Positions 12,059-40,257 are shown, counted from the stretch's first letter. The stretch is DNA of 64,000 nt from Alphaproteobacteria bacterium (GCA_016792565.1 JAEUMK010000014.1:34968-98967); one strand, 5' to 3'. A program made the numbers and translations. The notes: generated from the sequence alone by a model not told the origin.

Positions 12059-12077
12059 CGGCGGAAAGGAAAATACG

Positions 12078-13151
12078 ATGGCAGAAGATCTTCTCGTATC
12101 GCGGGATGCGCTCGGGACCACGCGGATCGCCGCCGCGGCGGCGCGGGCGCTGGAGGACGGCGAGGCGCGGCTGAAGGTTGACGCCTTCTCGCTCACCGCC
12201 AACAACGTCACCTACGGCGTCTTCGGAACGGCGATGAAGTACTGGGACTTCTTCCCGGCGGCGGAAGGCTTCGGCCGCGTGCCGGTCTGGGGCTTCGCGA
12301 CGGTCGCGGAAAGCCGCGCCGAAGGCGTCGCGCCGGGCGCCCGGGTCTATGGCTATCTGCCCATGTCGGACACGCTGATCGTGCGGCCGGGCGCGGTGAA
12401 GGCGAGCGGGTTCTCCGACGTCTCGGCGCACCGCGCGCATCTGGCGGCGGTTTACAACAACTATGTCTTCACGGCTTCCGACCCGCTCTACACGGCGGAC
12501 ACCGAGGCGTTGCAGATGCTGTTCCGTCCGCTCTTCACGACATCGTTCCTGATTGACGATTTCCTCGCCGACAACGGTTTCTTCGGCGCGCGCCAGGTGA
12601 TCTTCTCCAGCGCCTCCGCCAAGACCGCCTATGCGACTGCCGGGCTGCTGAAGGCGCGCGGCGGCGTGACGGTCGCCGGGCTCACCTCGCCCGGCAATAT
12701 CGGTTTCGTGAAAGAGCTCGGCTGCTACGGCGCGGTCGTTCCCTATGATGCGATCGAGACGCTCGACGCCGCGACGCCCAGCGTCTTCGTCGACATCGCC
12801 GGCGACGCGGCGGTGCGCGGGCGGGTCCATCGCCATTTCCGCGACGCGCTGGCCTATTCCTGCGCGGTCGGCGCGACGCACTGGGAACACGGCGGCGGCG
12901 GCGGCGACCTCCCGGGGCCTCAGCCGCAATTGTTCTTTGCGCCGAACCAGGTCGCCAAGCGGATCAAGGACTGGGGCCCGACGGGCTTCGCGCAGAAGAC
13001 GGCCGACGCCTGGCGCGCCTTCCTGCCGGTCGCCGTCGCGTCGACACGGGTTGTCGAGGGCAGGGGGCTCGCCGCTGCCGGCAAGGTCTTCGCCGATCTC
13101 GTCTCAGGCCGCGTCAAGGCCGACGAGGGGCATGTGATCCGCCTCGGCTGA
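12078..13151 (+). CDS. DUF2855 family protein
   Basis: AAGGA RBS; FSLTANNVTY, YWDFFP, VPVWGFA, LFRPLFTTSFLIDDFL, SSASAKTA recalled from DUF2855. Confidence 0.75.
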   Translation: MAEDLLVSRDALGTTRIAAAAARALEDGEARLKVDAFSLTANNVTYGVFGTAMKYWDFFPAAEGFGRVPVWGFATVAESRAEGVAPGARVYGYLPMSDTLIVRPGAVKASGFSDVSAHRAHLAAVYNNYVFTASDPLYTADTEALQMLFRPLFTTSFLIDDFLADNGFFGARQVIFSSASAKTAYATAGLLKARGGVTVAGLTSPGNIGFVKELGCYGAVVPYDAIETLDAATPSVFVDIAGDAAVRGRVHRHFRDALAYSCAVGATHWEHGGGGGDLPGPQPQLFFAPNQVAKRIKDWGPTGFAQKTADAWRAFLPVAVASTRVVEGRGLAAAGKVFADLVSGRVKADEGHVIRLG

Positions 13152-13237
13152 TACGCCTAGTGCGCGTGGGCGTGGGGCGGGCGGGCGCGAGGCCCGTGGT
13201 CATGGGGCCGTTGGTCGTTGGGCTAGGGGCGGTGGGC

Positions 13238-13461
13238 GACATCAGGGAACTGCTGCGCCTCTCGGCCCACCCGAAGCGCCGTGCGCCGCGGCGGACCGTA
13301 TCGCCGCGCATCAGCTTGCCGAGGTCGAACGCAAGATCTCGCGCCTGAAAGCGCTGCGGCGCGAACTGAAGCGCAAGAGCGAGGGTCCGCACGGCAGGCT
13401 CGGCGAGTGCCGCATCATCGAGACGCTCGCCGATCATCGGTTCTGCGGAGCTGGCCCCTGA
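13238..13461 (+). pseudogene. 5'-truncated, frameshifted MerR-family (CadR/ZntR-like) regulator remnant
   Basis: DIRELLRLSAHPKR (from 13238), a one-base slip near 13278, then PCAAADRIAAHQLAEVERKISRLKALRREL...ECRIIETLADHRFC to TGA 13459-13461. No HTH or start codon. Confidence 0.72.
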
Positions 13462-13476
13462 GCGGCGCGGCCGCTT

Positions 13477-14370
13477 TCAGGCGATCCGGTCGCTGACCCA
13501 GCCTGCTCCGGCCGCGATCGCCGCGCGCGCCTCGCCCAGCAACGGGGCGAACATGTGGAACACATGCTGCTGGCCGGGCCAGACTTCGAGCCGCACCTCG
13601 ACATCGGCGCGACTGGCGTTTGCGGCGAGCCCGAGCGAATCGTCCAGCAACGTCTCGGCGGAGCCGACCTGAATGAGCAGCGGCGGCAGGCCTGCGAGGT
13701 CGCCGAAGAGCGGACTGCAGGGCGCTGCCCTCAGGTCTCCACCGGCTGCATAGGCGGCCGCATAGGCGTCGAGGCTGGCGGCCGAGACGATGAGATCCTC
13801 ATCCGCCTTTGAGGACATCGTGCCGCTGGCGTTGGTGAGATCGACCCAGGGCGAGATGCACCAGCCGCCCGCCGGGCTGGGCAAGCCTGCCTCGCGCAGA
13901 GCGAGCAGTGTCGCGACGGTGAGCCCGCCGCCCGCCGAATCGCCCGCGATGACGATGCGGCCGGGCTTCAAGCCCTGGTCCAGCAGAAAGCGATAGGCGA
14001 CGACAGCGTCCTCGATCGCCGCAGGACAGGGGTGCTCGGGTGCGAGGCGGTAGTCGAGCGAGAGGACACGACCCTCGAACGCGGCAGCGAGCGCCGTGGT
14101 CAACGCCCGGTGCGTTGCGATGGAGCCGATCGCGTAGCCGCCGCCATGCAGATAGAGGATCGCCGCATCGCCGGCTGCATCCGGGCGCGCCTGCCATTCC
14201 GCTGGAACGCCGTTCGCCGTCACAGGGGTCAGCGTAACGCCGGCGGCTTGCGGCAGGACGGCGGTGGAAGCCTCCATGGCGGCGCGCTGAGCCGGCCATC
14301 CGGTCGGCCGCTCGCGCAGCCGCGACTCGCGCAGCATGGCATTGATGGCATGGAGTTCGTCGGCGCTCAT
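13477..14370 (-). CDS. Alpha/beta hydrolase, HSL-family esterase
   Basis: LHGGGY, DYRLAPEH, AGDSAGG, SPWVDL, QQHVF. Confidence 0.92.
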   Translation of the reverse strand: MSADELHAINAMLRESRLRERPTGWPAQRAAMEASTAVLPQAAGVTLTPVTANGVPAEWQARPDAAGDAAILYLHGGGYAIGSIATHRALTTALAAAFEGRVLSLDYRLAPEHPCPAAIEDAVVAYRFLLDQGLKPGRIVIAGDSAGGGLTVATLLALREAGLPSPAGGWCISPWVDLTNASGTMSSKADEDLIVSAASLDAYAAAYAAGGDLRAAPCSPLFGDLAGLPPLLIQVGSAETLLDDSLGLAANASRADVEVRLEVWPGQQHVFHMFAPLLGEARAAIAAGAGWVSDRIA

Positions 14371-14405: not shown

Positions 14406-15023
14406 TCAGGCTGCGTCCTGCGTCGCCGCGACGCAGTGCGGCAAAGCCTTGTAGCCGCCCAGGAAAAGTGCAGTGGCGAAGGCCGCTGCACCCTGCGGGT
14501 CGATCGGGTCGCGCTTGAGCATGTACTCTGCGATCTCAAAGCCGAGGCCCACGAATGAGGCGACGAGGAAGTCGACGTCCACCGGCGGGAAGAGGCCGTC
14601 CCCGATCGCCTGCGCGAGGTCGGCGCGCAGTTCGTCGAAGCCGGCGATGATTTCGGGCGTGTCCATCCTGATACGGATCGCATCGGCATTGCGACGGATC
14701 ACTGCGAAGGCGCGCCGATCCTCGGCGACCGACTCAAAGAATGTCACAAAGGTGCCGCTGACGAACTCGTCGATCGTGCGCGCGCGCTTGCGCTCCTCCC
14801 GCAGCCGCGGACGAACGCGCAGCGCCGTCTCGTCCTGGATCGCCTCGAAGACCTCTTCCTTGGACTTGAAGTAGTTGTAGAAGGTGCCGCTCGCCAGATC
14901 GGTCGCGCGAATGATGTCCCGCACCGTCGTCGCGCCATAGCCAAGCCTCGAGAACACATCGCGCGCCGCTTCCAGGATCGCCGTCCGGTTGTTCTTTTTG
15001 GTCTGCTCGCGTTTACCGCTCAT
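14406..15023 (-). CDS. TetR/AcrR family transcriptional regulator
   Basis: Start MSGKREQ; HTH ILEAARDVF...TTVRDI...GTFYNYFKSKEEVF. Confidence 0.92.
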   Translation of the reverse strand: MSGKREQTKKNNRTAILEAARDVFSRLGYGATTVRDIIRATDLASGTFYNYFKSKEEVFEAIQDETALRVRPRLREERKRARTIDEFVSGTFVTFFESVAEDRRAFAVIRRNADAIRIRMDTPEIIAGFDELRADLAQAIGDGLFPPVDVDFLVASFVGLGFEIAEYMLKRDPIDPQGAAAFATALFLGGYKALPHCVAATQDAA

Positions 15024-15140
15024 AGATTTCCCCTTGAGGCCGACGGGCATACGTTCTTGAAGACAAGGCGTCAATTTTTGAGGGCGGAGCGCAACAAGAT
15101 TCCGGCCAGAACCGGGGTCGCATGCTGTCTTGCTCTATCG

Positions 15141-15255: not shown

Positions 15256-16461
<1,206 letters not shown>

Positions 16462-16474
16462 GGGAGGGATCGCC

Positions 16475-18682
16475 ATGACCGCCTACGAAACCTTCAAGTT
16501 CTCGGTCGACAGCGACGGCATCGCCACCGCGGTGTTCGACGTCCCCGGCCGCTCGATGAATACGCTGACCGCCACGGTGCTGAAGGAGATCACGCTGATC
16601 GCCGAGCGCATCGGCGCCGATCCCGCCATCAAGGGCGCAGTCATTACCTCGGGCAAGACGTCGGGCTTCTGCGCCGGCGCGGACCTCGGCGAAATGGGCG
16701 AGAACGCCGGCGGCGACGCCCGCCTCTCCGAGCAGGAGCGCCTGCAGCGCGCCTTCGACAGCGCCTACGGCTTCAACAAGGTGCTGCGCGGGCTCGAGAC
16801 CTGCGGCAAGCCGATTGCGGCCGCGATCAACGGCCTGGCGCTGGGCGGCGGGCTTGAGGTGACGCTCGCCTGCCACTACCGCGTCGTCAGCGACAGTCCG
16901 AAGATCCAGCTCGGCCTGCCGGAATCGAAGATCGGCCTGCTGCCCGGCGGCGGCGGCACGCAGCGCCTGCCGAGGCTAATCGGCGCGCAGAAGGCGCTGG
17001 AGCTGATCAACGCGGGCAATCCCGTCTCGCCGCAGGAAGCGGTGAAAATCGGCATCGTGCATGCGACCGCCGCGCCGGGCACCGAAGTCTCCACCGCCAA
17101 GGACTGGATCCGCGCCAAGGGCGATCCGGTACAGCCCTGGGACAAGAAGGACTACAAGGTGCCGGGCGGCACGCCGCACAGCCCCGGCGGGGCGGGGGTC
17201 TTCACCATCGGTAACGCGCTGCTGCGCAAGAATTCGTACGGAAACTATCCGGCGCAGAAGTTCATCATGTCCTGCGTCTATGAGGGGCTGCAGGTGCCCA
17301 TGGACGCGGCCCTGCGTATCGAGTCGCGCTACTTCGCCAAGCTGCTGATGCACCCGGCGGCGAAGAACATGATCCGCTCGATGTTTCTCTCGATGCAGGA
17401 ACTGGGCAAGGGCGCGCGCCGCCCGGCGGGCCAGCCGCCGAGTGATGCGAGAAAGGTGACCGTGATCGGAGCCGGCATGATGGGCGCGGGCATCGCCTAT
17501 GTGCAGGCGATGGCCGGCATCGAGACTGTCCTGATCGACACCACCATCGAGGCGGCGGAGAAGGGCAAGGCCTACTCGGCCGCGCTGCTCGTCAAGCAGG
17601 TGGAGCGAGGCAAGATGGCGAAGGAGAAGGCCGATGCCGTACTCGCGCTGATCAAGCCGACGACCGACTATGCCGACGTGAAGGGCTCGGACCTCGTCGT
17701 CGAAGCGGTGTTCGAGAACCGCGAGATCAAGGCGGCGGTCACCAAACTGGCGGAGGCCGAACTCTCGCCCGGCGCGATCTTCGGCTCGAACACCTCGACA
17801 TTGCCGATCACCGGCCTCGCCGAGGCGAGCCGCCGGCCGGAGAACTTCATCGGCATCCACTTCTTCTCGCCGGTGGACAAGATGGGCCTCGTCGAACTCA
17901 TCCTCGGCAAGAAGACCGCGCCGCGCGCCGTCGCGGTGGCGATCGACTACGTGAAGAAGATCCGCAAGACGCCGATCGTCGTGAACGACAGCCGCGGCTT
18001 CTACACCTCGCGCTGCTTCGGCACCTATGTCGCCGAGGGTCAGGAGATGCTGGCCGAGGGCATCGCCCCGGCGATCGTCGACAATGTCGGGCGCATGACA
18101 GGCATGCCGCGCGGTCCGCTGGAGCTCGCCGACGATGTCGCGCTCGACCTTGCCTACAAGGTGCGCGAGCAGACGAAGAAGGACCTGGGTAGCGCCTATG
18201 TCGCTGGTCCCTCGGACGCGCTCATCGAGGCTCTGGTCGTCAAGCATGGTCGCCTTGGCCGCAAGAACGCCAAGGGCTTCTACGACTACCCGGCGAACAA
18301 AGGCCCCAAGACGCTGTGGCCGGGTCTCTCCGACCTCGTAGCCATCGAGGTGACCGAGGCAGACCCGGCGGCGGTGGAAGAACTCAAGAAGCGCTTCCTC
18401 TATCGCCAGGCGGTCGAGGCGGCGCGCTGCGTCGCCGAAGGTGTCGTCACCGATCCGCGCGACGGCGATGTCGGGGCGATCCTCGGCTGGGGCTTCGCGC
18501 CCTGGACCGGCGGTCCGATCAGCCTGATCGACACGGTCGGTCTGGCGAAGTTCGTCGAGGAGTGCGACCGCATGGCCCAGGCCTACGGCCCCCGCTTCGC
18601 CCCGCCGCAATTGCTGCGCGACATGGCGGCCAGGGGCGAGACCCTTTACGGGAACTGGAAGGCCGCCCCAAAGGCTGCCTGA
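16475..18682 (+). CDS. fadB: Multifunctional enoyl-CoA hydratase / 3-hydroxyacyl-CoA dehydrogenase (FadB/FadJ-like)
   Basis: Crotonase domain ([17 protein letters not shown]) then Rossmann [22 protein letters not shown]. Confidence 0.93.
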
Positions 18683-18709: not shown

Positions 18710-18734
18710 GGCCGGGTCAAAAACCCGGCCTTTT
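18710..18734 (+). terminator. Rho-independent terminator of the thiolase-fadB operon
   Basis: GGCCGGGT-caaaa-ACCCGGCC followed by TTTT. Confidence 0.75.
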
Positions 18735-18853
18735 CGCGCCGATTGTGAGGGATTTCGCAAACTGAGCGGGTCGATGGTTCCGCTTTTCGCCGCAATTGCG
18801 TAAGAAGACGCCCGTCCGGGGCCGTTCGGCCCGCCTCTTGGGGAGCTTTCACC

Positions 18854-20404
18854 ATGCGTCTCAATCTGTCCGCCCTGTTCCTGTCCACCGCCCTCGCTAC
18901 CAGCTTCGGCGCCGGAGCCGCGGTGCTGCTCGCCCCCATCGCACCGATCGCGCAGGCGCAGGATGCCGGTATGGGCTTGCCGAGCGAAGTCGACGTCGAT
19001 GCGCTGCTCAAGCTTCTGCCGCCCGAGGTCAAGGCTAGCTACGAGTCGAAATCCTATGATGCGTTGTCGGGCTTCACGACGATCAAAAATCTGAAGTTCG
19101 CCGATCCCGCCAACGAGGCCGGCAACAATGTGGTCATCGGCTTGGTCAGCCTGCGCGGCCTAGACTTGGCGGCGTTCGAGTATGTCTTCGACTTCGCCAA
19201 GTATGGCGCGACACCGGACGAGACCTTCAAACAACTGTTCGGCGAGGTCATCGTGAACGGGGTCACGATCACGGCGAACGGCGCCCCCGCCGGCTCGATC
19301 GAGAGCCTCGCGTTCGGCGGCGTGCAGATGAAGCAGCTTCAGGTGAAGCCGCCGGGCACCGGCGGTGCGCCAGCCTCCGAAATCGACGGCATCAAATTCG
19401 CCGGCGCGCTGTTGGACAGCATCATCGCCGGCCCGCTGGAGCTGACCAATCTCGCGGTCGACTCCGAGGGCAGCAAGATCACGATCGGTCGCGCCGCGCT
19501 CGGAGGCTACACGCGCGGCCAGTACGGTAACTCGGAGCTCTCGGGGTTCGAGGCGACCGGCGACGGCAATATGACGAAGATGGCCTCGGCCCGCTCTGAC
19601 GGCGGCGACCTCTCCAAGGTGCTGCCCTGGATGGTGAAGGGCGAGCTGCCGCCCGTCGCGCCAGAGCCGCTGCTCTATATCGGCGCCGGCAACGTCAGCG
19701 GCCTGGAATACGACATCATGGGTACCAAGGTGTCGATCGCCTCCTATGGCGTCGATGCGATCAACTTCTTCTGGCTGGTTCCGTCACAGTTCAAGATGAA
19801 CATGACGGACATGATCGTCATTCCGGCCGCATCGGATGCTGCCCAGCTCCAGGAACTCGGCATTAGCCAGCTCGACATGGACTTCGGGCTCGAGTGGACC
19901 TTCGACGGCGCCGCCGGCACGGCGCAGCTGAAGGAGCTGCGGATCGACGAGAGCAGCCTCTTCAACACCAATCTGTCGGTCGATCTGACGGGCCTCAATC
20001 TTTCCCAGCTGGTCGATCCCAACATGATGCAGATGGCGGTCATGCAGATCGGGATCACTGGCGCGAAGCTGTTCGTGAAGAACAACGGCGGCGTCGACAA
20101 GATACTCGCCGCCGCCGCGAAGGAAGAGGGCTCCACTCCCGACGCGATGCGTCAGCAGATCCTCGACCAGATGAGCGCGATGGAGGCCGGCATGCCGGGC
20201 CCAGACGGCCAGCCGGTTCCGCTCAGCGACCGGATGAAGGGCATCGTTGCGGCTCTGAAGGCGTTCGTCACCTCGCCGGGCACGCTGACGGTAACCATGC
20301 AGCCGGCCCAGCCGATCAACGCCATGAATGGCATGGGCGCGATGATGGACCCGATGGCCGCCGCCGATGCGCTCGGCATCACGGTCGAATCCACGCCGCA
20401 GTAA
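18854..20404 (+). CDS. Exported protein of unknown function (516 aa), paralog of 21974..23554
   Basis: GGGGAG RBS, long signal peptide ending AQA, alternating beta-strand-like pattern, C-terminal KAFVTSPGTLTVTMQPAQP. Confidence 0.85.
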   Translation: MRLNLSALFLSTALATSFGAGAAVLLAPIAPIAQAQDAGMGLPSEVDVDALLKLLPPEVKASYESKSYDALSGFTTIKNLKFADPANEAGNNVVIGLVSLRGLDLAAFEYVFDFAKYGATPDETFKQLFGEVIVNGVTITANGAPAGSIESLAFGGVQMKQLQVKPPGTGGAPASEIDGIKFAGALLDSIIAGPLELTNLAVDSEGSKITIGRAALGGYTRGQYGNSELSGFEATGDGNMTKMASARSDGGDLSKVLPWMVKGELPPVAPEPLLYIGAGNVSGLEYDIMGTKVSIASYGVDAINFFWLVPSQFKMNMTDMIVIPAASDAAQLQELGISQLDMDFGLEWTFDGAAGTAQLKELRIDESSLFNTNLSVDLTGLNLSQLVDPNMMQMAVMQIGITGAKLFVKNNGGVDKILAAAAKEEGSTPDAMRQQILDQMSAMEAGMPGPDGQPVPLSDRMKGIVAALKAFVTSPGTLTVTMQPAQPINAMNGMGAMMDPMAAADALGITVESTPQ

Positions 20405-20426
20405 GCGCGCGTCGCACCTCAACCTG

Positions 20427-20460
20427 AAGCGGCGCGCCTCCGGGCGCGCCGCTTTCATTT
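20427..20460. terminator. Terminator hairpin between convergent genes, possibly bidirectional
   Basis: AAGCGGCGCGCC-tccg-GGCGCGCCGCTT then TCATTT. Confidence 0.75.
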
Positions 20461-21846
20461 GATGGCGGCGCTCGCCGGACAGGGATCGGGTGCATCGATC
20501 TCGGCGATCGTTCGCCGCAAAGTGGGATCGTTCAGCACCGCCAGGCGACCGGCGTCGATCAACTGCTCCACTTGATCAGGGGAGATCGTCAGCCCGGTCG
20601 GGATGTCTTTGAGGGCGTCGGCCGCCGGCTGGTCGCTGAGCGCGACATGCACCAGCGCCGCGCGCGCACCCAGATTTTCGCCCGTGCGCCCGGCGCATCG
20701 CAGCGCCGTCAGGTTGGCCGCCACGGCACTGCCTGAGCTTCGGGCAAGCCGCAGGGTCTCGAAATTGTACTGGTCGATCGTATTCGACGTAACAGCGTCG
20801 GCGATGCGCAACAGGTCGCCGACCACTGGCGTGCGGTTGATCTCGCGGTCCTGGGCGGACTGTCCGTCAATCGAAATAAATATGATGCGACGCAGCCGCT
20901 GGACGCGACCGGTCGGGTCAGGCGCGGCGGCAGGCGTGTCGTATCGCGAAATGTAGTTGAGCAGGCCGCGCATCGCGAGATTGTCGCCGACGCCCCCGTC
21001 GACCAGATGCACATAGGCGTCTCTGTCGGCCTCGGTGTAGCGCCGCGCCAGCTTCGCCTGCTGGCGCTGGCGCGACAGCGGGTCGGCATCCGCCAGCGCC
21101 GGCGCGATCCAGCCAGGCTCGGTCCTGCAAAAGGCGCTGTAGTTCTTGAGCGTGATCGGCGTGAAGAGGATCGGAAAGCCGTTTGAGGCCGCGACTGCCC
21201 GGGCCAGAGGGTAGTCGGAGAGATCCGAACAGATCAGGTCGAACTGGTTCTGGATAAACGGAAAGGGTGTGCCGCTGGCCAGATCGGTCGCCTGAATCAT
21301 CGCATAGGGCGGCCCGAGCTTCTGAAGGTCGCCAAAGGTCGCGCCGCGGAACATCAAATCGTCGTAGACCCGGGCCATCTCATCGTTGGTCCCCCAGTTG
21401 GGGTTGACCATCCAGTCCCAGCGCCAGGGCAGCAGGTAGATGCCGGCGATCTCGTCGTTCAGGTCCTCGTCCAGGAAGTCACGGCGAAAGGTCTCGAACA
21501 TCGCGTCGCGGTGCAGCGCATAGTAGGCGGCCGGGAAACTGCCGCCGGAGACTCCGGTTAGAAGATCGATCTCGTGCAGAAGGCTGCCGGTGCGCTCGCC
21601 GGATCCAAGGCCTATCTCGCGCATAGCCAGCAGCGCGCCGTAGCCGAAAGCCGCCGAGCGCTTGCCCCCGCCGGAGAACGAGACGACGACGAGCAGATCA
21701 TCCGAGCTGCGGGCCGACGAGAGACTGTCGAGGCGGTAGCCCTTCGTTTCGTCCATCGTTGCGAGGGGGGCGTTGACCTGCGCCTGCAGCGAGGCGCATC
21801 CGGCGGTCAACAGCCCGGCAAGACTGACTGCAACGAACGATCTCAT
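20455..21846 (-). CDS. Patatin-like phospholipase, predicted lipoprotein
   Basis: Start MRSFVAVS; lipobox LTAG-C; SGGGKR, GVSGG (GxSxG), DGG catalytic motif. Confidence 0.88.
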   Translation of the reverse strand: MRSFVAVSLAGLLTAGCASLQAQVNAPLATMDETKGYRLDSLSSARSSDDLLVVVSFSGGGKRSAAFGYGALLAMREIGLGSGERTGSLLHEIDLLTGVSGGSFPAAYYALHRDAMFETFRRDFLDEDLNDEIAGIYLLPWRWDWMVNPNWGTNDEMARVYDDLMFRGATFGDLQKLGPPYAMIQATDLASGTPFPFIQNQFDLICSDLSDYPLARAVAASNGFPILFTPITLKNYSAFCRTEPGWIAPALADADPLSRQRQQAKLARRYTEADRDAYVHLVDGGVGDNLAMRGLLNYISRYDTPAAAPDPTGRVQRLRRIIFISIDGQSAQDREINRTPVVGDLLRIADAVTSNTIDQYNFETLRLARSSGSAVAANLTALRCAGRTGENLGARAALVHVALSDQPAADALKDIPTGLTISPDQVEQLIDAGRLAVLNDPTLRRTIAEIDAPDPCPASAAIK

Positions 21847-21973
21847 GGCTACCCTCGATGCTCCCCAAGCGACTATGGCGGGCGCCAACGCACCGTCAAC
21901 GCTATCTGGTAGCCGAGCATGACAAGGCGTGCCGACTTCGTGTTCAATGGAGCCGGTCTGGATGGGAGAATTC

Positions 21974-23554
21974 ATGCGCCGCTTCATGCTCGCCGCCATT
22001 GCTGCTGTCTCGCTTGTTGCCCCAGCGCCTGCGCAGGTTCTGCCATCTGCAGACATCGATGCGCTGCTGGCGGCATTGCCTGGCGTCGTCGCCACCTACG
22101 AGACCAAGTCCGATATTGGTGGCGTCATTGCGCTTGACGGACTGAAGATCGCAATGAAGAACCCGGACGGCACGCCGGACGAGGCCAACAAGGTCGTCGT
22201 CAGGCGGGCCGAGGCGACCGGTCTCGACGCAGATGCGATCCTCGCCGTCTTTGACGGTGCCCGCTACGGGACAGAGCCCGACCAGACCTTCCGCAGTCTG
22301 TTCAGCCAGCTTGACCTTCGCGACGTTTCGGTCGTCGCCGGCGGCAAGACGGTCGCGACGATCGCCAGTTGGTCGGCCGCTTCGCTCGAGATGAAGCAGT
22401 TCTGGTTTAAGCCGGCAGCCGACATGCGCAGCCAGTTCGGATCGGATGTCGAAATGGCGGCCAAGGTCTTAGGCAATGTGCTCGACTCGACAAGGGCCGG
22501 GCTGTCGTCGATCTCCGGTCTGCACTTGGAAATCGATACTGCGGCGATGGCGGCGGCGATGGCGCCGGGCACGCCGATGCCGCCTTCGCAGGGCATCGAG
22601 GTCTACGACTATGCAGAGATCACGGTCGATGGCTTCGACCGCGGCCGGTGGGGCCGGATGACCTGGAAGGGCCTCTCGTCGCGATCGCCCATGCCGCCGC
22701 TGGGCGAGATGTCGGTCAGCGTTGCGGAGGGTCACTGGGATGGGGCCGACGTCAGCAAGCTCCTGCCCTGGCTGATGCGCGCCGAGTGGCCGCCGGCCGA
22801 ACGCGAGGGTCTTGTTTCCTTCGGGGCGACCTGTGCGACGTCCTACGTCATGTCGATTCCTGGAGTCGGCACACTGGACTTTCCCGAGACGTGCAGCGAG
22901 GCGATCGATTTCGTTTGGCTGATCCCGGTGCAGGTCAGGATCGACATGACCGGTACTTTCACACCCGCGCCGCCCGGTGAGTTCATTGCTCCACCACACG
23001 TCGCCAGGCACTTTAAAGGCCCCCTGGACGCCGGGCTGACGATCGAGGCGCGCTACGATCCGGACGCCGGCACGGCTGCCCTGACGCACTACGGATTTCG
23101 GCTCGGCGGTTTCGGGTCGGTCGACTTCTCTGCGACCGGCGGCGGTCTAGCGCTGGCCGGCCTGGGCCTTCTGCCCCAGACCTATGCCGACATGCTGACG
23201 CTCAATGCCGCCGCCGTCGAACTGGTCGATGAGGGCGGCGTCACCAGAATCCTGGAAATGGCGGCCGACACCGCCAACGCGGAATCCGGGGGTGCAGGTC
23301 AGGTGACCGCCGCCGCGCTAAGACTGCAGGCGAAGGCCGGGCTCGACATGGCCGCCGGCATGCTGGGCAACTCGCCCGAGGCCGCGGCGCTTATCCAGCC
23401 GGTCAAGGCGTTCATCGATGCCGGAGGCACGCTGACGCTGCGTCTCGCGCCGCCTTCGCCGCTGAGGGGCGCCGACTTCGAGGCGCTGGCCGGCAAGCCG
23501 CCTGCCGAAATGCTCCAGATCCTCGGCGTCGAGGCCTCTCACGCTGCGCCTTGA
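21974..23554 (+). CDS. Exported protein of unknown function (526 aa), paralog of 18854..20404
   Basis: GGGAG RBS, signal peptide MRRFMLAAIAAVSLVAPAPA, shared blocks with the first copy, C-terminal KAFIDAGGTLTLRLAPPSP. Confidence 0.85.
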   Translation: MRRFMLAAIAAVSLVAPAPAQVLPSADIDALLAALPGVVATYETKSDIGGVIALDGLKIAMKNPDGTPDEANKVVVRRAEATGLDADAILAVFDGARYGTEPDQTFRSLFSQLDLRDVSVVAGGKTVATIASWSAASLEMKQFWFKPAADMRSQFGSDVEMAAKVLGNVLDSTRAGLSSISGLHLEIDTAAMAAAMAPGTPMPPSQGIEVYDYAEITVDGFDRGRWGRMTWKGLSSRSPMPPLGEMSVSVAEGHWDGADVSKLLPWLMRAEWPPAEREGLVSFGATCATSYVMSIPGVGTLDFPETCSEAIDFVWLIPVQVRIDMTGTFTPAPPGEFIAPPHVARHFKGPLDAGLTIEARYDPDAGTAALTHYGFRLGGFGSVDFSATGGGLALAGLGLLPQTYADMLTLNAAAVELVDEGGVTRILEMAADTANAESGGAGQVTAAALRLQAKAGLDMAAGMLGNSPEAAALIQPVKAFIDAGGTLTLRLAPPSPLRGADFEALAGKPPAEMLQILGVEASHAAP

Positions 23555-23639: not shown

Positions 23640-24422
23640 ATGACGGCGTATCAGACGATCCTGGCGGAGAACCGCGGCGCGGTGACGCTGCTGACGCTGA
23701 ACCGGCCAGAGCGGCTGAACGCCTGGACTCCGCAGATGTTCATCGACCTCGGCGCGGCGATCGAGGCGGCCAACGCCGATAGGGCCATCGGCGCCATCGT
23801 GGTGACCGGCGCAGGGCGTGGGTTCTGTGCCGGGGCCGATATCCAGGACGTCTTCAAGGCGCAGGCCGAGACAGGCGCGGGCGAGGATGGCCGGACGGCA
23901 GGGGTCGACTGGATCAACCTCTGCCGCCGGTCGAAACCCCTGGTCGCCGCCGTCAATGGCCCTGCGGTCGGTATCGGCGTCACCATGATCCTGCCGTTCG
24001 ACGTGATCGTCGCTTCGGAGGCGGCCAAGATGGGACTGCCCTTCGTGCGGATGGGCATCGTGCCGGAACTGGCTTCCTCGCATCTTCTCAGCCGCCGGAT
24101 CGGCTTCGGCCGGGCCAGCGAACTGATGCTCACCGGACGGCTGATTTCCGGGGCGGAGGCGGCGTCCAAGGGGCTCGCCGACATCCTCGCCACGCCTGAA
24201 AACCTGATGGATGAGGCACTTCGGACGGCAGCCCTGATCGCCGCCAACCCCGACCCGATGCTGCGCATGACCAAGCAATTGCTGGCTGAGAATGCCGTGG
24301 AGAGCGATCTTGCTGCAGTGCAGCGCCGCGAGATCGAGATGTTGCGGGTCTGCTACCAGACGCCGGAGCACAAGGAGGCGATCGCCGCCTTCATGGAGAA
24401 GCGTCCGGCGCGGTTCCGCTGA
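23640..24422 (+). CDS. Enoyl-CoA hydratase/isomerase (crotonase) family
   Basis: LNRPERLNA, FCAGADI, AAVNGPAVG, EAIAAFMEKR. Confidence 0.92.
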   Translation: MTAYQTILAENRGAVTLLTLNRPERLNAWTPQMFIDLGAAIEAANADRAIGAIVVTGAGRGFCAGADIQDVFKAQAETGAGEDGRTAGVDWINLCRRSKPLVAAVNGPAVGIGVTMILPFDVIVASEAAKMGLPFVRMGIVPELASSHLLSRRIGFGRASELMLTGRLISGAEAASKGLADILATPENLMDEALRTAALIAANPDPMLRMTKQLLAENAVESDLAAVQRREIEMLRVCYQTPEHKEAIAAFMEKRPARFR

Positions 24423-24499: not shown

Positions 24500-25087
24500 A
24501 TGACTGTTCAGATGAAAGCCTTCGCTGCGGCCGCCGCCGCCCTTCTGCTCTGCGCCACGCCCACCTTCGCCCAGGAGGCCCCCGAGGCGCCTGCCGCCGA
24601 GGCTCCGGTCAAGGAAGCCAAGCCGATATCGCACTTCTTCGGTGTGTTCCAAGGCCCGACCAAGATTGTCAGCGGCGCCGGCGCTGACACGGCCGAGGCG
24701 TCCGGTCGCCTGTCGCGGGTCGAGACGACGGCCGCCGGCAAGGGATTCACCATCACCTGGTCGACCCTCTACATCGACGACGAGAACCCGTCGGAGATCA
24801 AGATCAAGGACTCCACCGAGATCACCTTCGTGCCGGCCAAGGAGGCGAATGTCTTCAAGCAGAAGGACGCGCCGGAACTGTGGACCGGCAAGCCGCACTA
24901 CTGGGCCCGTATCGACGGTGACACGCTGCACGTCTCGGCGCTGGTGCTCGACGCAAACGGCACCTACGACGTCACACACTACGCCCGCACCGTGCAGGGC
25001 GATGCGATGCGCCTTGAGTTCGCTCGCTTCAAGGACGGACAGCTGCAGCGCGAAGTGACCGGTACGCTGGAGCGCGCCGCCGACTAG
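24500..25087 (+). CDS. Exported hypothetical protein, beta-rich domain after an Ala/Pro/Glu linker
   Basis: GGGAG RBS, signal peptide ending TFA-QE, own terminator. Confidence 0.78.
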   Translation: MTVQMKAFAAAAAALLLCATPTFAQEAPEAPAAEAPVKEAKPISHFFGVFQGPTKIVSGAGADTAEASGRLSRVETTAAGKGFTITWSTLYIDDENPSEIKIKDSTEITFVPAKEANVFKQKDAPELWTGKPHYWARIDGDTLHVSALVLDANGTYDVTHYARTVQGDAMRLEFARFKDGQLQREVTGTLERAAD

Positions 25088-25104: not shown

Positions 25105-25139
25105 GCCCCGGACGCGGAGCCCCCGCGTCCGGGGCTTTT
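25105..25139 (+). terminator. Rho-independent terminator
   Basis: GCCCCGGACGCGG-agccc-CCGCGTCCGGGGC followed by TTTT. Confidence 0.8.
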
Positions 25140-25156: not shown

Positions 25157-26002
25157 ATGAGCGAACCCAAGCATCGTATGATCGGCCTGCCTGACGGCGA
25201 GGTCCACATCCTCGACTGGGGTGGCGGCGGTCCGGCCGTCCATTTCGCGCATGCCAACGGTTTCAACGGCGCGACCTATGCGAACATCCTCGCGCCGCTG
25301 GCTAACGAGGCGCGGCTCCTCGCTTCTGATCTGAGAGGTCACGGCTTCACGACGCTTCCCGCCCAGCCTGACGCCCATCCCGGCTGGCCGGTATTCGCCG
25401 CCGACCTCGCGGCGATGCTGGATGCGCTGGACGCCGGGCCATACGTGCTCGCCGGCCACTCAATGGGCGCGACGAGCAGCCTACTCGTTGCCGCGCTACG
25501 GCCCGAACTGGTGCGCGCCCTCGTCCTCTTCGATCCGGTCGCGTCCGACTTCCCGCCGGCTATCGACCGAGACGCGATCCCGCTGGTCGTCGGTGCGCGC
25601 AAGCGGCGGGCAGTCTTTCCGGATGCAGAGACGGCGTTGACCGCCTATATCGGCCGCGGCGCGTTCAAGACTTGGCCGGACGAGACCATCGCCGCCTATC
25701 TGAAGGGCGGCCTCAAGCCTGATCCCGAGGGTGTGCGCCTCGCCTGCGATCCGATGTGGGAGGCAGCCAATTTTCGCATGGGGCCGGCCGGGGTACAGGA
25801 GGCGGTCGATGCGGTGCGCTGCCCCATCGCAGTCTTCACCGCCGCTGAAGGCTCGACCACAGGTGCGCCGGCTCTGGCGCGGCTGCGCGATCGCCGCCCC
25901 GACGCGCGCATCGAGCGCGTGCCGGGCACGACCCACTTCCTTCCTATGGAACGGCCCGATCTGGTGCGTGCGGCGATCCGCGAGGCGCTCAGCTTGCGAT
26001 AA
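25157..26002 (+). CDS. Alpha/beta hydrolase
   Basis: HANGF, DLRGHG, GHSMG nucleophile, THFLPME. Confidence 0.9.
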   Translation: MSEPKHRMIGLPDGEVHILDWGGGGPAVHFAHANGFNGATYANILAPLANEARLLASDLRGHGFTTLPAQPDAHPGWPVFAADLAAMLDALDAGPYVLAGHSMGATSSLLVAALRPELVRALVLFDPVASDFPPAIDRDAIPLVVGARKRRAVFPDAETALTAYIGRGAFKTWPDETIAAYLKGGLKPDPEGVRLACDPMWEAANFRMGPAGVQEAVDAVRCPIAVFTAAEGSTTGAPALARLRDRRPDARIERVPGTTHFLPMERPDLVRAAIREALSLR

Positions 26003-26825
26003 GCCGGGCTGCGGCGGCGGCGACGCGATCCGGCAGGGGCACAGCCCTGCGGCTCGCCCGGTCGAGGAAAAGCGCCGCGCCCGCCGCCGCCGCCGCCATC
26101 TCGCCACTCTCGGCGTCGAACAACCAGTGGCGGAAGCGCACCGTCTTCGCGCTCATCGCGGTGACGTTCGTCAGCAGGCGGACGATCGATCCCGCCTTCG
26201 GCTTGACGCCATAGCGGATACGGTAGTCGAGCGTCGCGGTCGCAAGATGATGGGCCCGTTGCCAGGCACGCGGTGCATCGAGCATCGCCCAGAGGTGTCC
26301 CTGCGCCTCGGAGAAGCACGCCATCACGCCGCGCGGCGCGAGGCCGCCGTCCGGATCGCACTGCGCCACCTGGACGGCGTTCCGGATCGTCTCCTCGAAT
26401 CCCGCCGCCGCCTCCAGCGTACCTTCGCCTTCGGCGCCCTCGGCTAGGCCCGGCGCGGTCGGCCCGGCGGTGACGAGCGCCGTTCCCACCGGGACAGGAC
26501 CCTCCGCGCCGACATCGACCGCCACGCAGAGATCGCCGTGGCCGTTGCGGACCTCCAGCACGGCGTCCATCACGCCTTCTCCGATCCGCGTCACGCCCCC
26601 ATGAATGGCGACGAGGTCGCTGACATGCATCTCCTTCTGGAAGCGGATGCGATGCCGCGCGATGCGCACCGCCGCGCGGTCCTCGCGCGAGACGCCCATA
26701 GCTGCGAGCAGTCCCGCAAAGGCCTCCGAGGCCTTGGCCACATGGAACTGCACGTTCATGTGGCCCATCTCGTCGCAGTCCCATGGATTGACATAGCCGC
26801 GATAGACGATGGGGAGAGCGCTCAT
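25989..26825 (-). CDS. Double hot-dog acyl-CoA thioesterase
   Basis: YVNPWDCDEMGHMNVQFH in the first half and a degenerate second repeat VQVAQCD; 14 nt after the carboxylase stop. Confidence 0.8.
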   Translation of the reverse strand: MSALPIVYRGYVNPWDCDEMGHMNVQFHVAKASEAFAGLLAAMGVSREDRAAVRIARHRIRFQKEMHVSDLVAIHGGVTRIGEGVMDAVLEVRNGHGDLCVAVDVGAEGPVPVGTALVTAGPTAPGLAEGAEGEGTLEAAAGFEETIRNAVQVAQCDPDGGLAPRGVMACFSEAQGHLWAMLDAPRAWQRAHHLATATLDYRIRYGVKPKAGSIVRLLTNVTAMSAKTVRFRHWLFDAESGEMAAAAAGAALFLDRASRRAVPLPDRVAAAAARLIAS

Positions 26826-26838: not shown

Positions 26839-28755
26839 TCACGCCGCCGCGATGGTCAAAAGAAGCGCGTTGGGGGCGACCTGTGCGCCTTCGGCGGTCG
26901 AGATGGCGCTGACGACGCCGCCCGCCCGGGCGCGGATCTCGTGCTCCATCTTCATGGACTCAAGGATCGCCACGATGTCGCCCTTGGCGACTATCGCGCC
27001 GACCGCAGCCTTCAGCGCCACCAGCTTGCCGGCCATCGGGCTTCGTACCTCGCCGCTCGCCGAGCCGCCGCCGGCCTCCGGCGGGGCATAGGTCGCGTCC
27101 TCGAACAGCGCCTCGCGCCCGTCGATCCCCAGATGGATGCGCGCACCCATCACCTTGGCGAGCACGCGCCGAACCCCGCCGTCAAGCTCCGCAGCATAGA
27201 GCGCGTTGCCCTCGCGGTCGTGGCCGCGCGGCACGAGTGCGACGCCGCCGTCGCCGGCGACGTCGATGCGGACCGTCGCGCCGCGTTCCTGCAGCAGCAC
27301 CGGCGTCCGCCGCACGCCGTTCGAGCTCCAGCCCGCCCCGGCCCCGCGCGCCAGTATGGCGGCGGCGATGGCGGCAAGCTCGTTGTCGGGGGCGGGAGCC
27401 GCGCTCTCGCGCCGCCCCAGCCAGGCCGTATCGGCCTCGCCGGCAATGAAGACCGGATCGTTCAGGATCGCCCGCAGATAGGCGCGGTTGGTGCGGATGC
27501 CGAGCGGCAGCAGCGCGCCAAGTGCCGCCTCCAGCTTCACCCGCGCCTCCTCGCGCGTTTCGCCGCGCGCGATCACCTTGGCGATCATCGAATCGTAGTC
27601 GCCGCTGACGACCGGCGTCCCGGCGAAGTCGATGCGCACCTGCGGCCACTCGCCCAGCGGCTCCAGCGTCAGCGGCCCGCGCTGCGGCTTGAAGCCGTCG
27701 TCGGGATCTTCGGCGCAGAGCCGCGCTTCGATCGCATGACCGCTGAGCGGCACATGATCGAGGTCGAAGGACAGCGGTCTGCCCATCGCCACGTCGAACT
27801 GGAGGCGGATGAGGTTCAGCCCCGTCACCTCCTCGGTGACCGGATGCTCCACCTGGATGCGGGTGTTCATCTCAAGGAAATAGAAGGCGCCGGAGCGGTC
27901 GATCAGGAACTCGACCGTGCCCGCATTGGAATAGCCGACAGCGCGCGCGAGCGTCTCGGCGGCGGCGCCCATGGCGGCGCGCAGCTCTTCGCTCATGCCG
28001 GGGGCGGGCGCCTCCTCGATGATCTTCTGGTTGCGCCGCTGCACCGAGCAGTCGCGCTCGCCGAGATGGGCGACATTGCCGGCGGCGTCGCCGAAGACCT
28101 GGATCTCGATGTGCCGGGCGAAGTCGATCGCCCTTTCCAGGATCACGCGGTCGTCGGCGAAGGCGCTTTTCGCCTCGCGCCGGGCGCTGGCGAGCGAATC
28201 GGCGAAATCCTCCGCGCGTTCCACGCGGCGCATGCCGCGCCCGCCGCCGCCCATCGCCGCCTTGATCATCACCGGCCAGCCGATCGCCTCGGCCTCGCGG
28301 GCGAGGCGCGCATCGTCCTGATCCTCGCCGTCATAGCCGGGGATCAAGGGCACGCCGGCGGCGCGGGCGATGCGCTTGGCCGCGCCCTTGTCGCCCATCG
28401 CCCGGATCGCCTCGGGCGATGGGCCGATCCACACCATGCCGGCGTCGATGACGCTTTGCGCGAAGTCGGCGTTCTCGGCGAGAAAGCCGTATCCTGGATG
28501 CACCGCCTCCGCGCCGGTCTCGCGTGCGATGGCAAGGATCGCCGGCACATTGAGATAGGAGTGCGCCGCCGCCGCCGGGCCTACCCGCCGCCGCACCTTG
28601 GCGGAGACGGCATGGGCGCTCCATTCGTCGGCGTCGGAGTAGATGGCGATGGGAACGAGGCCCATCGCATTGGCCTCGCGCACCACGCGCGCCGCGATCT
28701 CGCCGCGATTGGCGATGAGGACGCGCGTGAAGGGGCGGGCCGGGGCGCTCATCAC
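26839..28755 (-). CDS. Acyl-CoA carboxylase alpha subunit (biotin carboxylase + biotin carrier), AtuF/MccA-like
   Basis: IANRGEIA, HPGYGFLAEN, EMNTRIQVEHP; biotinylation motif ESMKME. Confidence 0.92.
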   Translation of the reverse strand: MMSAPARPFTRVLIANRGEIAARVVREANAMGLVPIAIYSDADEWSAHAVSAKVRRRVGPAAAAHSYLNVPAILAIARETGAEAVHPGYGFLAENADFAQSVIDAGMVWIGPSPEAIRAMGDKGAAKRIARAAGVPLIPGYDGEDQDDARLAREAEAIGWPVMIKAAMGGGGRGMRRVERAEDFADSLASARREAKSAFADDRVILERAIDFARHIEIQVFGDAAGNVAHLGERDCSVQRRNQKIIEEAPAPGMSEELRAAMGAAAETLARAVGYSNAGTVEFLIDRSGAFYFLEMNTRIQVEHPVTEEVTGLNLIRLQFDVAMGRPLSFDLDHVPLSGHAIEARLCAEDPDDGFKPQRGPLTLEPLGEWPQVRIDFAGTPVVSGDYDSMIAKVIARGETREEARVKLEAALGALLPLGIRTNRAYLRAILNDPVFIAGEADTAWLGRRESAAPAPDNELAAIAAAILARGAGAGWSSNGVRRTPVLLQERGATVRIDVAGDGGVALVPRGHDREGNALYAAELDGGVRRVLAKVMGARIHLGIDGREALFEDATYAPPEAGGGSASGEVRSPMAGKLVALKAAVGAIVAKGDIVAILESMKMEHEIRARAGGVVSAISTAEGAQVAPNALLLTIAAA

Positions 28756-29906
28756 GACCGTCCCGGCAGGGTGCCCATGCCCTTGCAGATGATCTGCAGC
28801 ATCACCTCGTCGGCGCCACCGCCGATGGAGCCCAGCCGTCCGTCGCGGTAGGAGCGCGAGATGCGGGTCTCGTCCATGAAACCCATTCCTCCATAATATT
28901 GCAGGCAGGCATCATTGACGATGCGGCCGAGCCGCGTCGCCTTCAGCTTCGCCATGCTGGCGAGCTGCGTCATGTCCTCGCCCGCGACATAGCGTTCCAC
29001 CGCTTTCCAGGTGAGCGCTCGCAGCGCCTCCACCTCGGTCTGGAGTTCTGCCAGCTTGAAGTGGACGACCTGGTTGTCGAGCACGCTCTTGCCGAAGATC
29101 TTGCGCTCGCGCGTATAGGCGATGCAGTCGTTAATCGTGCGCTCCAGTCCTTCGGCGGCGCTGAGCGCGGCGTACATGCGCTCCTCCTGGAACTGGATCA
29201 TCTGGTATTGGAAGCCGAGGCCTTCCTGTCCGATGCGGTTGCGCTTGGGCACACGCACGTCCTCGAAGAAGATCTGCGCGGTGTCCGACGAGTGCATGCC
29301 CATCTTCTTCAGCGTCCGCGCGACGGTGACGCCCCTGGACTTCATCGGTAGGCAGATCAGCGATTTGTTGCGATGCGCCGGGCCGTCGCCGGTATTGGCG
29401 AGCAGGCACATCCAGTCGGCCTGCGCGCCATTGGTCGTCCACATCTTGCCGCCGTTGATGACGTAGTCGTCGCCGTCGCTGCGGGCGGTCGTCTTGATCG
29501 AGGCGACGTCGCTGCCCGCCCCGACCTCGGAGACGCCGAGGCACGCGACATACTCGCCGCTGATCGAGGGCCTCAGGAATTCCTCGCGCAATTCGTCGCT
29601 GCCGAACTTCGCCAGCGCCGGGGTAGCCATGTCGGTCTGCACGCCGATCGCCATCGGCACCCCGCCGCAATTGATGTGCGCCAGCGCCTCGCAGAAGACG
29701 GCGGTAAAGGAATAATCGAGCCCGAGGCCGCCGAACTGCTCGGGCTTGCCGATGCCGAGAAATCCTTGCGCGCCCATCTTCCGGAACAATTCGTGCGCCG
29801 GAAAGATGCGCGCCTCCTCCCAGGCATCGACATGGGGATTGATCTCGGTCTCGATGAACCGGATCAGCGAGCGTTTCAGTTCGCGGTGCTGGTCGGTGAG
29901 TTGCAT
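28752..29906 (-). CDS. atuD: Acyl-CoA dehydrogenase, citronellyl-CoA dehydrogenase (AtuD)-like
   Basis: GVSEVGAGSDV, SIGGGADEVM; subfamily-like segments CGGVPMAIGVQTDMATPAL and MIQFQEER recalled from AtuD. An alternative GTG start is at 29915. Confidence 0.78.
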   Translation of the reverse strand: MQLTDQHRELKRSLIRFIETEINPHVDAWEEARIFPAHELFRKMGAQGFLGIGKPEQFGGLGLDYSFTAVFCEALAHINCGGVPMAIGVQTDMATPALAKFGSDELREEFLRPSISGEYVACLGVSEVGAGSDVASIKTTARSDGDDYVINGGKMWTTNGAQADWMCLLANTGDGPAHRNKSLICLPMKSRGVTVARTLKKMGMHSSDTAQIFFEDVRVPKRNRIGQEGLGFQYQMIQFQEERMYAALSAAEGLERTINDCIAYTRERKIFGKSVLDNQVVHFKLAELQTEVEALRALTWKAVERYVAGEDMTQLASMAKLKATRLGRIVNDACLQYYGGMGFMDETRISRSYRDGRLGSIGGGADEVMLQIICKGMGTLPGRS

Positions 29907-29936
29907 GACGGTCACTTCGCTGGTTGTCTGAAGACG

Positions 29937-31547: not shown

Positions 31548-31563
31548 GCGGCGTCTCCCCCTG

Positions 31564-31637
31564 GAGCATCCAAAGGCGCCACGGCAGTTTGATGCTCTTC
31601 GGCGCACGCGAACTTAAGCGCGATTCCGCGTGCGCCG
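31564..31637. other. Two tandem stem-loops in the leader of the carboxylase operon
   Basis: GAGCATC (31564-70)/GATGCTC (31591-97) and CGGCGCACGCG (31600-10)/CGCGTGCGCCG (31627-37). Confidence 0.5.
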
Positions 31638-39667: not shown

Positions 39668-39741
39668 GGCGTTTCTCCCGCTTGTTCTGGCGGGCGACTT
39701 TGTCGTTGGCAGGGGGCGAAAGGCAAGAGCTTGGGGCTGAC

Positions 39742-40257
39742 GTGACGACACTGACCACGCCGCGCCTCGTGCTGCGCCGCGCCCGCGCGGACGATCTCGC
39801 CGCCATGCATGCCGTCCTCTCCGAGCCGCGTGCCATGGCTCATTGGTCCACATTGCCGCACCGAACGCTGGACGAAACTCGCGCTTGGCTCGCCGCCATG
39901 ATCGATTCCCCCAAGGAGGTCAGCGACGACTACGTCGTCGAGATCGATGGGCGCGTCGTCGGCAAGGCCGGATTCTGGCGCCTGCCGGAAATCGGCTATA
40001 TCCTGCACCCGGACGTCTGGGGCCTGGGCGTCGCGACCGAGGCACTGACCGCGGTGCTCGATCACGTCTTCGCCGCACGGTGTCTCGACGCCGCGATCGC
40101 CGACGTCGATCCCGCCAATTCCGCATCGATCCGTGTCCTCCAGAAGCTCGGCTTCCGCGAGACTCGACGGGCTGCGAACACATGGTTCATCGGCGGACGC
40201 TGGTTCGACAGCGTCTACTTCACGCTGCAGCGGGGCGACTGGCTTCAGCGCCGCTGA
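39742..40257 (+). CDS. GNAT acetyltransferase, RimJ/RimL family
   Basis: GTG start; LTTPRLVLR, EIGYIL...WGLGVATEA, NSASIRVLQKLGF. Confidence 0.88.
   Translation: MTTLTTPRLVLRRARADDLAAMHAVLSEPRAMAHWSTLPHRTLDETRAWLAAMIDSPKEVSDDYVVEIDGRVVGKAGFWRLPEIGYILHPDVWGLGVATEALTAVLDHVFAARCLDAAIADVDPANSASIRVLQKLGFRETRRAANTWFIGGRWFDSVYFTLQRGDWLQRR

Follow-up and report, generated by a model that had tools for sequence, protein, structure and literature searches.

How phospholipids and fatty acids pass across the periplasm is still an open question. The described proteins closest to those studied here are the AsmA-like proteins and other repeating beta-groove (RBG) bridges (TamB, YhdP and YdbH; VPS13 and BLTP1/LPD-3), the beta-jellyrolls of the Lpt system (LptA, LptC and the N-terminal domain of LptD), YdgA and YihF (DUF945, PF06097), and JlpA of Campylobacter jejuni. 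AsmA-like proteins have an N-terminal inner-membrane helix and a chorein-N domain and fall in Pfam clan CL0401 (PMC10345924). The subject of this work is a pair of genes, A and B, which flank a gene for a lipoprotein patatin in a stretch of 64,000 nucleotides from Alphaproteobacteria bacterium (GCA_016792565.1, JAEUMK010000014.1:34968-98967), hereafter the window, from whose first letter all positions are counted. A first-pass annotation, made from the sequence alone, had taken the three genes for a periplasmic lipid-handling module. Our analysis indicated that A and B are probably periplasmic beta-sheet proteins handling hydrophobic cargo and placed them in a family that had no name. The three genes, as read from the open reading frame (ORF) table and the translations, are the following (aa, amino acids):

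18854..20404, plus strand: paralogue A, an exported all-beta repeat protein of 516 aa (ORF table, translation)
20455..21846, minus strand: patatin-like phospholipase lipoprotein of 463 aa (translation, PF01734 match)
21974..23554, plus strand: paralogue B, 526 aa, or 530 aa if the start is at 21962 (translation, BLASTP to A)

Paralogy, export and predicted fold of A and B

The results of our BLASTP comparison showed that A and B are 28% identical (43% positives) over 513 aligned residues, with an E-value of 3e-38, in an alignment that is collinear from the signal peptide through the C-terminus. Judged on this alignment, A and B are true paralogues whose similarity lies far beyond chance. In the ORF table the frame of B is open from 21929 (541 aa) or from 21974 (526 aa), both versions ending at 23554. 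Both N-termini are of the Sec type, with cleavage sites that were read by eye: that of A is MRLNLSALFLSTALATSFGAGAAVLLAPIAPIAQA/QD (leader end AQA/QD) and that of B, which has a short leader, is MRRFMLAAIAAVSLVAPAPAQ/V (leader end APAPAQ/V). With a net charge of −25, mature A is acidic, and it contains no cysteine.

In a maximum-likelihood tree, the A-type and B-type sequences formed two clades, each with 100/100 support and each with orthologues from several genomes, and the duplication must therefore be old. The single-copy gene of the metagenome-assembled genome (MAG) UBA2784 (L013), which adjoins a patatin, was placed as sister to the A clade, and several further metagenomic sequences were placed inside the B side. 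A whole-genome search showed that A and B are the sole copies of their family in the source genome of the window. The first-pass annotation had described two collinear, exported paralogues born of an old duplication, which agrees with all of these results, and the seven motif pairs that it quoted were all recovered in the translations of A and B.

AlphaFold2 (AF2) modelled A with a predicted local distance difference test score (pLDDT) of 85.1 and a predicted template-modelling score (pTM) of 0.74, and B with a pLDDT of 89.7 and a pTM of 0.81; the secondary structures of the two models, whose input alignments overlap, agree at 89% of 459 aligned positions. Both models contain about 18 strands of 10-16 residues, laid out as successive hairpins with short helices between them, and both end in the order strand-helix-helix-helix-strand, a C-terminal strand-plus-three-helix region that is conserved. 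Helical residues account for about 26-28% of the models, including the three long C-terminal helices.

The alternating hydrophobic pattern that had been noticed in the strands of A and B was found family-wide. When 74 members were averaged, hydrophobic and polar residues alternated in nearly every strand, with a break of register in mid-strand (two consecutive polar positions), so that one face of the sheet would be apolar throughout and the strands would probably be kinked. Such an apolar face would fit a sheet folded over an apolar interior, in the form of a groove or of a flattened sandwich. Comparison of the family profile with itself gave an off-diagonal match at a shift of about 56 columns (probability 60%, E 8.5e-5), which suggests hairpin repeats of about 56 residues. 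The conserved columns hold Gly, Pro, Asp, hydrophobic residues and one Arg, with no conserved Ser/His/Cys set, and an enzymatic role for A and B appears unlikely.

Our preferred, still tentative reading is that A and B are non-enzymatic periplasmic binders of hydrophobic or lipid cargo that cooperate with the patatin in lipid catabolism. Each protein is predicted to consist of a long antiparallel beta-sheet of repeated hairpins, with one hydrophobic and one polar face, followed by the C-terminal helical region. The amphipathic sheet would most likely form a groove or half-barrel in which acyl chains, or hydrophobic cargo of another kind, are shielded while in the periplasm.

The wider family and its relation to described systems

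Neither A nor B matched a Pfam or NCBIfam model. A HMMER profile search, run exhaustively over 1.84 billion cluster representatives, returned 3830 family representatives at E ≤ 1e-3, of which 1872 reach E ≤ 1e-10 and 117 reach E ≤ 1e-30; most are 500-700 aa long, and wherever a source name is given it reads 'hypothetical'. Among the named members are proteins of Bradyrhizobium diazoefficiens and Hyphococcus/Marinicaulis. Word-indexed searches found close relatives only (35 for A at an identity of at least 54%, 13 for B, all 'hypothetical'), belonging to Alphaproteobacteria bacterium SO-S41, Micropepsaceae and related MAGs. The word-indexed search with the broad alignment returned chiefly this close clade again, together with four Bradyrhizobium-type proteins, and the scan of genome contigs for related loci with the narrow alignment yielded 8 loci.

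In whole-genome searches, 44 of 301 alphaproteobacterial genomes (about 15%) contained the A/B family, which is spread across many families of the class with 1-3 copies per genome. In a sample of 401 genomes of the phylum it was present in 52, only 3 of which lie outside Alphaproteobacteria. Tandem copies are common elsewhere (three in G237, two or three in G079, two in L065). The best-conserved part is the C-terminal stretch of about 245 residues, which is also found in proteins of about 410 aa. A lipobox was present in 67 of 173 full-length members (about 39%), and most of the others have a hydrophobic leader. On these sequence data, the A/B family is large, hitherto unannotated, mostly alphaproteobacterial and Sec-exported, its members being predicted as soluble periplasmic proteins or lipoproteins. 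A family of thousands of sequence clusters, found in about one in seven of the sampled alphaproteobacterial genomes, has remained unnamed, lacks a model in Pfam or NCBIfam and is not close to any solved structure, although its fold is predicted with high confidence.

Two unusual architectures were seen among its members. P0116 (1126 aa) is a distant member fused to a C-terminal caspase (Peptidase_C14) domain. In P0037 (506 aa, on a 1976-bp ENA contig), a carboxylesterase/Abhydrolase_3 domain is combined with the C-terminal ~165 residues of an orthologue of A (73% identity); on so short a contig this may be a genuine fusion or a chimera produced by assembly.

An hmmscan at E up to 1, run on ten diverse members and later on 74, matched no Pfam family except the caspase of the fusion and, once, DUF945 in a leader; PDB sequence-profile searches with both alignments returned noise only. 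Kinship with YdgA or with the AsmA clan, suggested by the fold that the first-pass annotation had guessed at, was not supported by the sequence tests. No family of the AsmA clan (AsmA, AsmA_2, TamB/DUF490, DUF748, DUF3971 and others) was matched by A, by B or by either set of members. A and B have periplasmic beta-rich repeats and long amphipathic strands in common with the AsmA-like and RBG bridges, but their N-terminus is, as read by eye, a cleavable signal peptide (for A, probably so) or, in relatives, a lipobox, instead of an inner-membrane anchor helix (PMC10345924). They also have only about 480 mature residues, their unit is a hairpin of about 56 residues and not five strands plus a loop, and the structural comparison gave a template-modelling (TM) score of about 0.2.

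YdgA and YihF resemble A and B in size (about 500 aa), in envelope location and in having an uncharacterised function. Membership in DUF945 was rejected: its sole Pfam match, in 1 of the 74 members, covered no more than the hydrophobic leader (the N-terminal 43 residues), and hhalign of the 74-sequence family profile against 16 DUF945 proteins gave a probability of 3.9%. PF06097 is absent from the source genome of the window, and of 201 genomes sampled across the phylum, DUF945 was detected in 33, all of which lie outside Alphaproteobacteria. The distributions of DUF945 and of the A/B family are complementary, which may hint at analogous roles and is suggestive only.

Membership in DUF2125 (PF09898) was also rejected (hhalign against 12 collected sequences, 1-4% probability); a bona fide DUF2125 gene does occur in the source genome, separately, on contig C52. 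Weak partial DUF2125 matches were seen in two frames of 532 and 528 aa located about 1.3 kb apart and in a separate frame of 702 aa (G042:C1:952685-954979, G003:C151:2856-3125). These frames were missed by the A/B family profile and may belong to another unannotated family of similar size.

Comparison of the models with the PDB by Foldseek brought up lipid-groove proteins among the best matches. The model of A matched LPD-3 (PDB 9cap; E 4.6e-4, TM 0.17), LptD (E 9e-4) and JlpA, the only match with a probability of 1.0 (target TM score, TMt, 0.34-0.38), as well as LptH/LptC and P47/OrfX2. For B, JlpA was at the top (probability 0.54, TMt 0.19), accompanied by LptD, LPD-3 (E 0.08) and LptC/LptA (TMt 0.36-0.44 over 137-188 columns), with porins mixed in. 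Among predicted viral structures, the top two matches were chorein-N (VPS13-like) proteins of giant viruses (E 4.6e-7 and 1e-5, probability 1.0, TM about 0.2). Lipid-carrying sheets, open, curved and antiparallel, recur as a theme among the matches, but every superposition is poor.

With the Lpt jellyrolls A and B share a periplasmic beta-sheet; the hydrophobic groove for acyl chains is known in Lpt and would be a prediction for A and B. Both models matched LptC/LptA weakly (TMt 0.29-0.44 over 137-193 columns, probability 0.6-0.9, E 0.01-0.5), with LptD at E about 1e-3. However, A and B are 3-4 times longer than the jellyrolls, have the helical C-terminal region, lie in no Lpt gene context and gave no OstA/LptC Pfam match.

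The prominence of JlpA raises an alternative that we consider improbable, namely that the ligand of A and B is not a lipid, or that the two proteins work, at the surface or in the periplasm, in an adhesin-like or polymer-binding way, their beta-sheet being a binding platform, a 'catcher's mitt' of the JlpA type, rather than a lipid groove. JlpA is, like many members of the A/B family, a lipoprotein, and its structure (PDB 3uau) is presumably an open, curved beta-sheet. It is described as a surface adhesin of about 340 aa. Its place as the sole match of probability 1.0 for A and as the top match for B speaks for such a platform, but the match for B is weak, the superpositions have TMt values of 0.19-0.38 with a root-mean-square deviation of 8-21 Å, there is no sequence similarity, and no JlpA Pfam match was found in A, B or the 74 members. 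The one-sided hydrophobic faces of the strands are also more in keeping with a buried core, or with cargo that is apolar, than with a surface for polar ligands.

That A and B might be outer-membrane beta-barrels, to which weak Foldseek matches with AlgE, OmpC, CdiB and FadL could point, is most improbable: these matches have probabilities ≤ 0.2 and TM scores ≤ 0.2, the helical content and the three long C-terminal helices do not fit a barrel, A and B have no C-terminal aromatic residue, and many of their homologues are lipoproteins.

The patatin and the genomic neighbourhood

The product of the middle gene is a patatin, matching PF01734 with an E-value of 8.4e-13 and 49.4 bits against a gathering cut-off of 27.7. 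Its frame is open over 20455-22095 on the minus strand. The start that makes biological sense is the ATG at 21846, which gives MRSFVAVSLAGLLTAGC, holding a lipobox, and a protein of 463 aa, a length also given by the gene callers in other assemblies. The lipobox LLTAGC follows a hydrophobic leader (MRSFVAVSLAGLLTAG/C). The catalytic motifs GGGKR, GVSGG and DGGVGDN are intact, and the protein shares with patatin-like phospholipases (PF01734) the Gly-rich oxyanion motif (GGGKR), GxSxG (GVSGG) and DG[GA] (DGGVG). It differs from them in belonging to a lipoprotein-anchored envelope subfamily present in only 10 of 301 alphaproteobacterial genomes, whose orthologues and paralogues also carry a lipobox, and it has no solved relative detectable by sequence.

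The same genome contains two more paralogues of this lipoprotein patatin, with 35-36% identity and a lipobox (G000:C58:343-1710, L111, and G000:C95:14703-15917, L112). The remaining features of the neighbourhood are listed here from left to right:

14406-15074, minus strand: TetR regulator, divergent from the thiolase (Pfam match)
15256-16461, plus strand: thiolase (Pfam match)
16475-18682, plus strand: FadB-like multifunctional enzyme (Pfam match)
18710..18735, plus strand: terminator-like hairpin and T-run, 3' of fadB (sequence, palindrome scan)
20427..20454, no strand assigned: GC-rich hairpin with 10-bp arms, between the convergent A and patatin genes (palindrome scan)
23640..24422, plus strand: enoyl-CoA hydratase, or crotonase (PF00378, E 1.8e-49)
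24500..25087, plus strand: small exported protein of 195 aa (191 aa as called elsewhere) with a signal peptide (translation)
25105..25135, plus strand: strong intrinsic terminator 3' of the 195-aa exported ORF (palindrome scan)
25157..26002, plus strand: alpha/beta hydrolase (Abhydrolase_1/6) (Pfam match, synteny)
25989..26825, minus strand: double hot-dog 4HBT_2 thioesterase, convergent with the alpha/beta hydrolase (Pfam match, synteny)

The first-pass annotation was right about the flanks as well as about the patatin, which it had described as lipobox-bearing, intact in GxSxG and DGG and divergent from B: the thiolase and FadB-like genes upstream and the crotonase downstream place the locus in a lipid-catabolic setting. 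The A and patatin genes are convergent and 50 bp apart, the hairpin between them being likely to act as a bidirectional terminator, and the patatin and B genes are divergent and 127 bp apart. The gene for A would form its own transcription unit because the hairpin and T-run at 18710-18735 separate it from fadB, and it carries its own ribosome-binding site (GGGGAG). A promoter-like site for the patatin lies at 21899-21872. The gap of 85 bp between B and the crotonase contains only a weak hairpin in the palindrome scan, and the crotonase is possibly co-transcribed with B.

The gene order was compared in a close clade of 10 genomes, with identity down to 32%, in two of which (L009 and L012) the contigs end before the full block. 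Wherever the contig reaches, the order is constant: fadB, then A, then the small exported protein, the alpha/beta hydrolase and the 4HBT thioesterase. The TetR, thiolase and FadB set upstream of A is conserved in relatives, and the same arrangement is found in SO-S41, whose chromosome is complete (AP024629). The patatin adjoins A in 8 of the 10 close genomes. In some of them a short-chain dehydrogenase/reductase (SDR) or a CYP102-like P450-reductase fusion (a fatty-acid hydroxylase) is inserted, and in others a TetR/ABC-2 efflux set precedes A.

The small exported protein is syntenic in L001-L004, L008, L010 and L013, the last of these being the single-copy locus. It matched nothing in the PDB and no Pfam model above cut-off, and it may belong to the same system as A and B. 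A link between its ORF and the patatin paralogue on contig C58 was rejected, the match consisting of leader and low-complexity sequence only (E 0.01).

Two observations concern the genomes of the close clade. A Micropepsaceae MAG (5N014, L002) has, at 11147-14332 between the patatin and B, a 1061-aa fusion of P450, flavodoxin and FAD/NAD reductase of the CYP102/BM3 type. Two MAGs titled 'uncultured Flavobacteriaceae bacterium' (L008, CAYMIJ010000009.1, and L010, CAZBPO010000012.1) show the same gene order at 60-66% GC, and their bins are probably mislabelled or contaminated.

At the level of whole genomes, the A/B family was present in 7 of the 10 genomes that have the patatin subfamily and in 37 of the 291 others (odds ratio 16, Fisher p about 8e-5, uncorrected for phylogeny); when the genome of the window was left out, p was about 4e-4, again with phylogeny uncorrected. 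We propose that in this lineage the pair settled inside a conserved neighbourhood of fatty-acid and lipid catabolism, where A and B would probably hold or pass on, en route to beta-oxidation, the lipids or fatty acids that the envelope patatin handles. The groove, the lipid or fatty-acid cargo and a contact of A and B with the patatin are all parts that we infer.

Several observations weigh against this proposal. Genes A and B and the patatin gene appear from the sequence to be three separate, adjacent transcription units, the intergenic regions (tetR/thiolase, fadB/A, patatin/B, B/crotonase and others) contain no convincing shared operator or palindrome, and neither FadL nor FadD is encoded within the 64-kb window. 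The patatin is absent from two of the close relatives (L003 and L008). Homologues of the patatin, the small exported protein, the hydrolase and the thioesterase were all missing within 8 kb of 33 distant loci that were searched directly. At 19 distant loci, 114 neighbouring ORFs matched 138 Pfam families, none of which recurred more than 3 times (ECH 3, GDPD 2, SDR 2, OmpA 2). Outside the close clade, the patatin subfamily was never adjacent to a member of the A/B family. As for the fold, Foldseek found no good PDB match to either model, with TM scores of 0.1-0.44, and none for B at E ≤ 1e-3; the match to JlpA was strong for A only. A phage tail fibre came third among the viral structures and porins appeared among the PDB matches, and long beta-meanders may resemble one another in 3Di terms partly for generic reasons.

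The patatin is likewise not among the Pfam families listed for the neighbours of the 19 distant loci, and an ECH gene lies near 4 of the 33, which by a rough estimate is about the chance level for so common a family. The link with the patatin and lipid genes is clade-specific, conserved only in the close lineage. Of the earlier claims, which as a whole are borne out in part, the beta-groove guess gained confident AF2 models whose best, weak matches are lipid-groove proteins, but at TM scores that stayed low. The association with lipid genes and the patatin held in the close clade and failed in the superfamily at large, an outcome that the first-pass annotation had itself named as refuting its inference. 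The idea of a general module is not supported, given the separate units with their terminators, the 2 of 10 close relatives devoid of patatin and the distant loci that lack the patatin and the other cluster genes.

The results for the distant loci would be expected if the family had a general housekeeping or scaffolding role in the envelope, such as tethering or the lipid homeostasis of the outer membrane, perhaps as an alphaproteobacterial analogue of YdgA/DUF945, and if its proximity to patatin and beta-oxidation genes were a lineage-specific accident of gene order that reflects no common pathway. This explanation, the main alternative, which we regard as unlikely although of appreciable weight, would account for distant members with no conserved neighbours, for the copy number of 1-3 across many alphaproteobacterial families, for the many lipoproteins, for the separate transcription of A, patatin and B and for the complementary occurrence of DUF945. 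However, the block is kept down to 32% identity while lipid enzymes (patatin, SDR, CYP102-like P450) come and go in the space between A and B, which looks like selection on the neighbourhood, and the family co-occurs with the patatin subfamily across genomes; the hhalign probability speaks against an analogue of DUF945 in particular.

A narrower role, in which A, B or both would be dedicated accessory factors of the patatin (a chaperone, an inhibitor or activator, or a membrane-docking partner) rather than carriers, could explain why the patatin adjoins A in most close genomes and the single-copy A-like gene in L013, and would agree with the co-occurrence. We think it quite improbable, since A and B persist with no patatin in L003 and L008, neither of the patatin paralogues L111 and L112 adjoins an A/B-family gene, no family member lies near the relatives of the patatin in three further genomes that were inspected, and the family, with its 44 genomes out of 301, is far from matched by the 10 of the patatin subfamily.

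The preferred reading, of A and B as binders of hydrophobic cargo, has a bolder extension that we rate as a long shot. A and B could each form one half of a periplasmic lipid bridge of a new kind, joined head-to-tail in the manner of Lpt jellyrolls and made of soluble or lipoprotein-anchored pieces from a family with no sequence kinship to AsmA or Lpt. The bridge would work in the catabolic direction, carrying patatin-released fatty acids or lysolipids to the inner membrane for beta-oxidation, and the wider family would be the alphaproteobacterial counterpart of YdgA/DUF945. The frequent tandem copies in other genomes would fit a head-to-tail assembly. If A and B do bind lipids, the family adds a compact class of signal-peptide or lipoprotein type beside the Lpt, Mla/MCE and AsmA-like bridges. 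If they do not, they still represent a new and well-defined domain family that deserves a database entry. The locus is useful in that its conserved context (lipoprotein patatin, beta-oxidation genes, thioesterase) suggests concrete substrates.

Other lipid-related genes of the window

The conserved block is adjoined, at 26839-31607 on the minus strand, by a cluster for a biotin carboxylase/biotin carboxyl carrier protein, an acyl-CoA dehydrogenase and a carboxyltransferase, which is of the methylcrotonyl- or geranyl-CoA carboxylase type and whose synteny extends to SO-S41. Another patatin, unrelated to the first and of the NTE type, with a cyclic-nucleotide-binding (cNMP) domain, an NTE P-loop and a patatin domain, is encoded 20 kb downstream (42160-44199, minus strand), near a MaoC dehydratase (38798-39853) and an Acyl_transf_3 protein (41015-42163).

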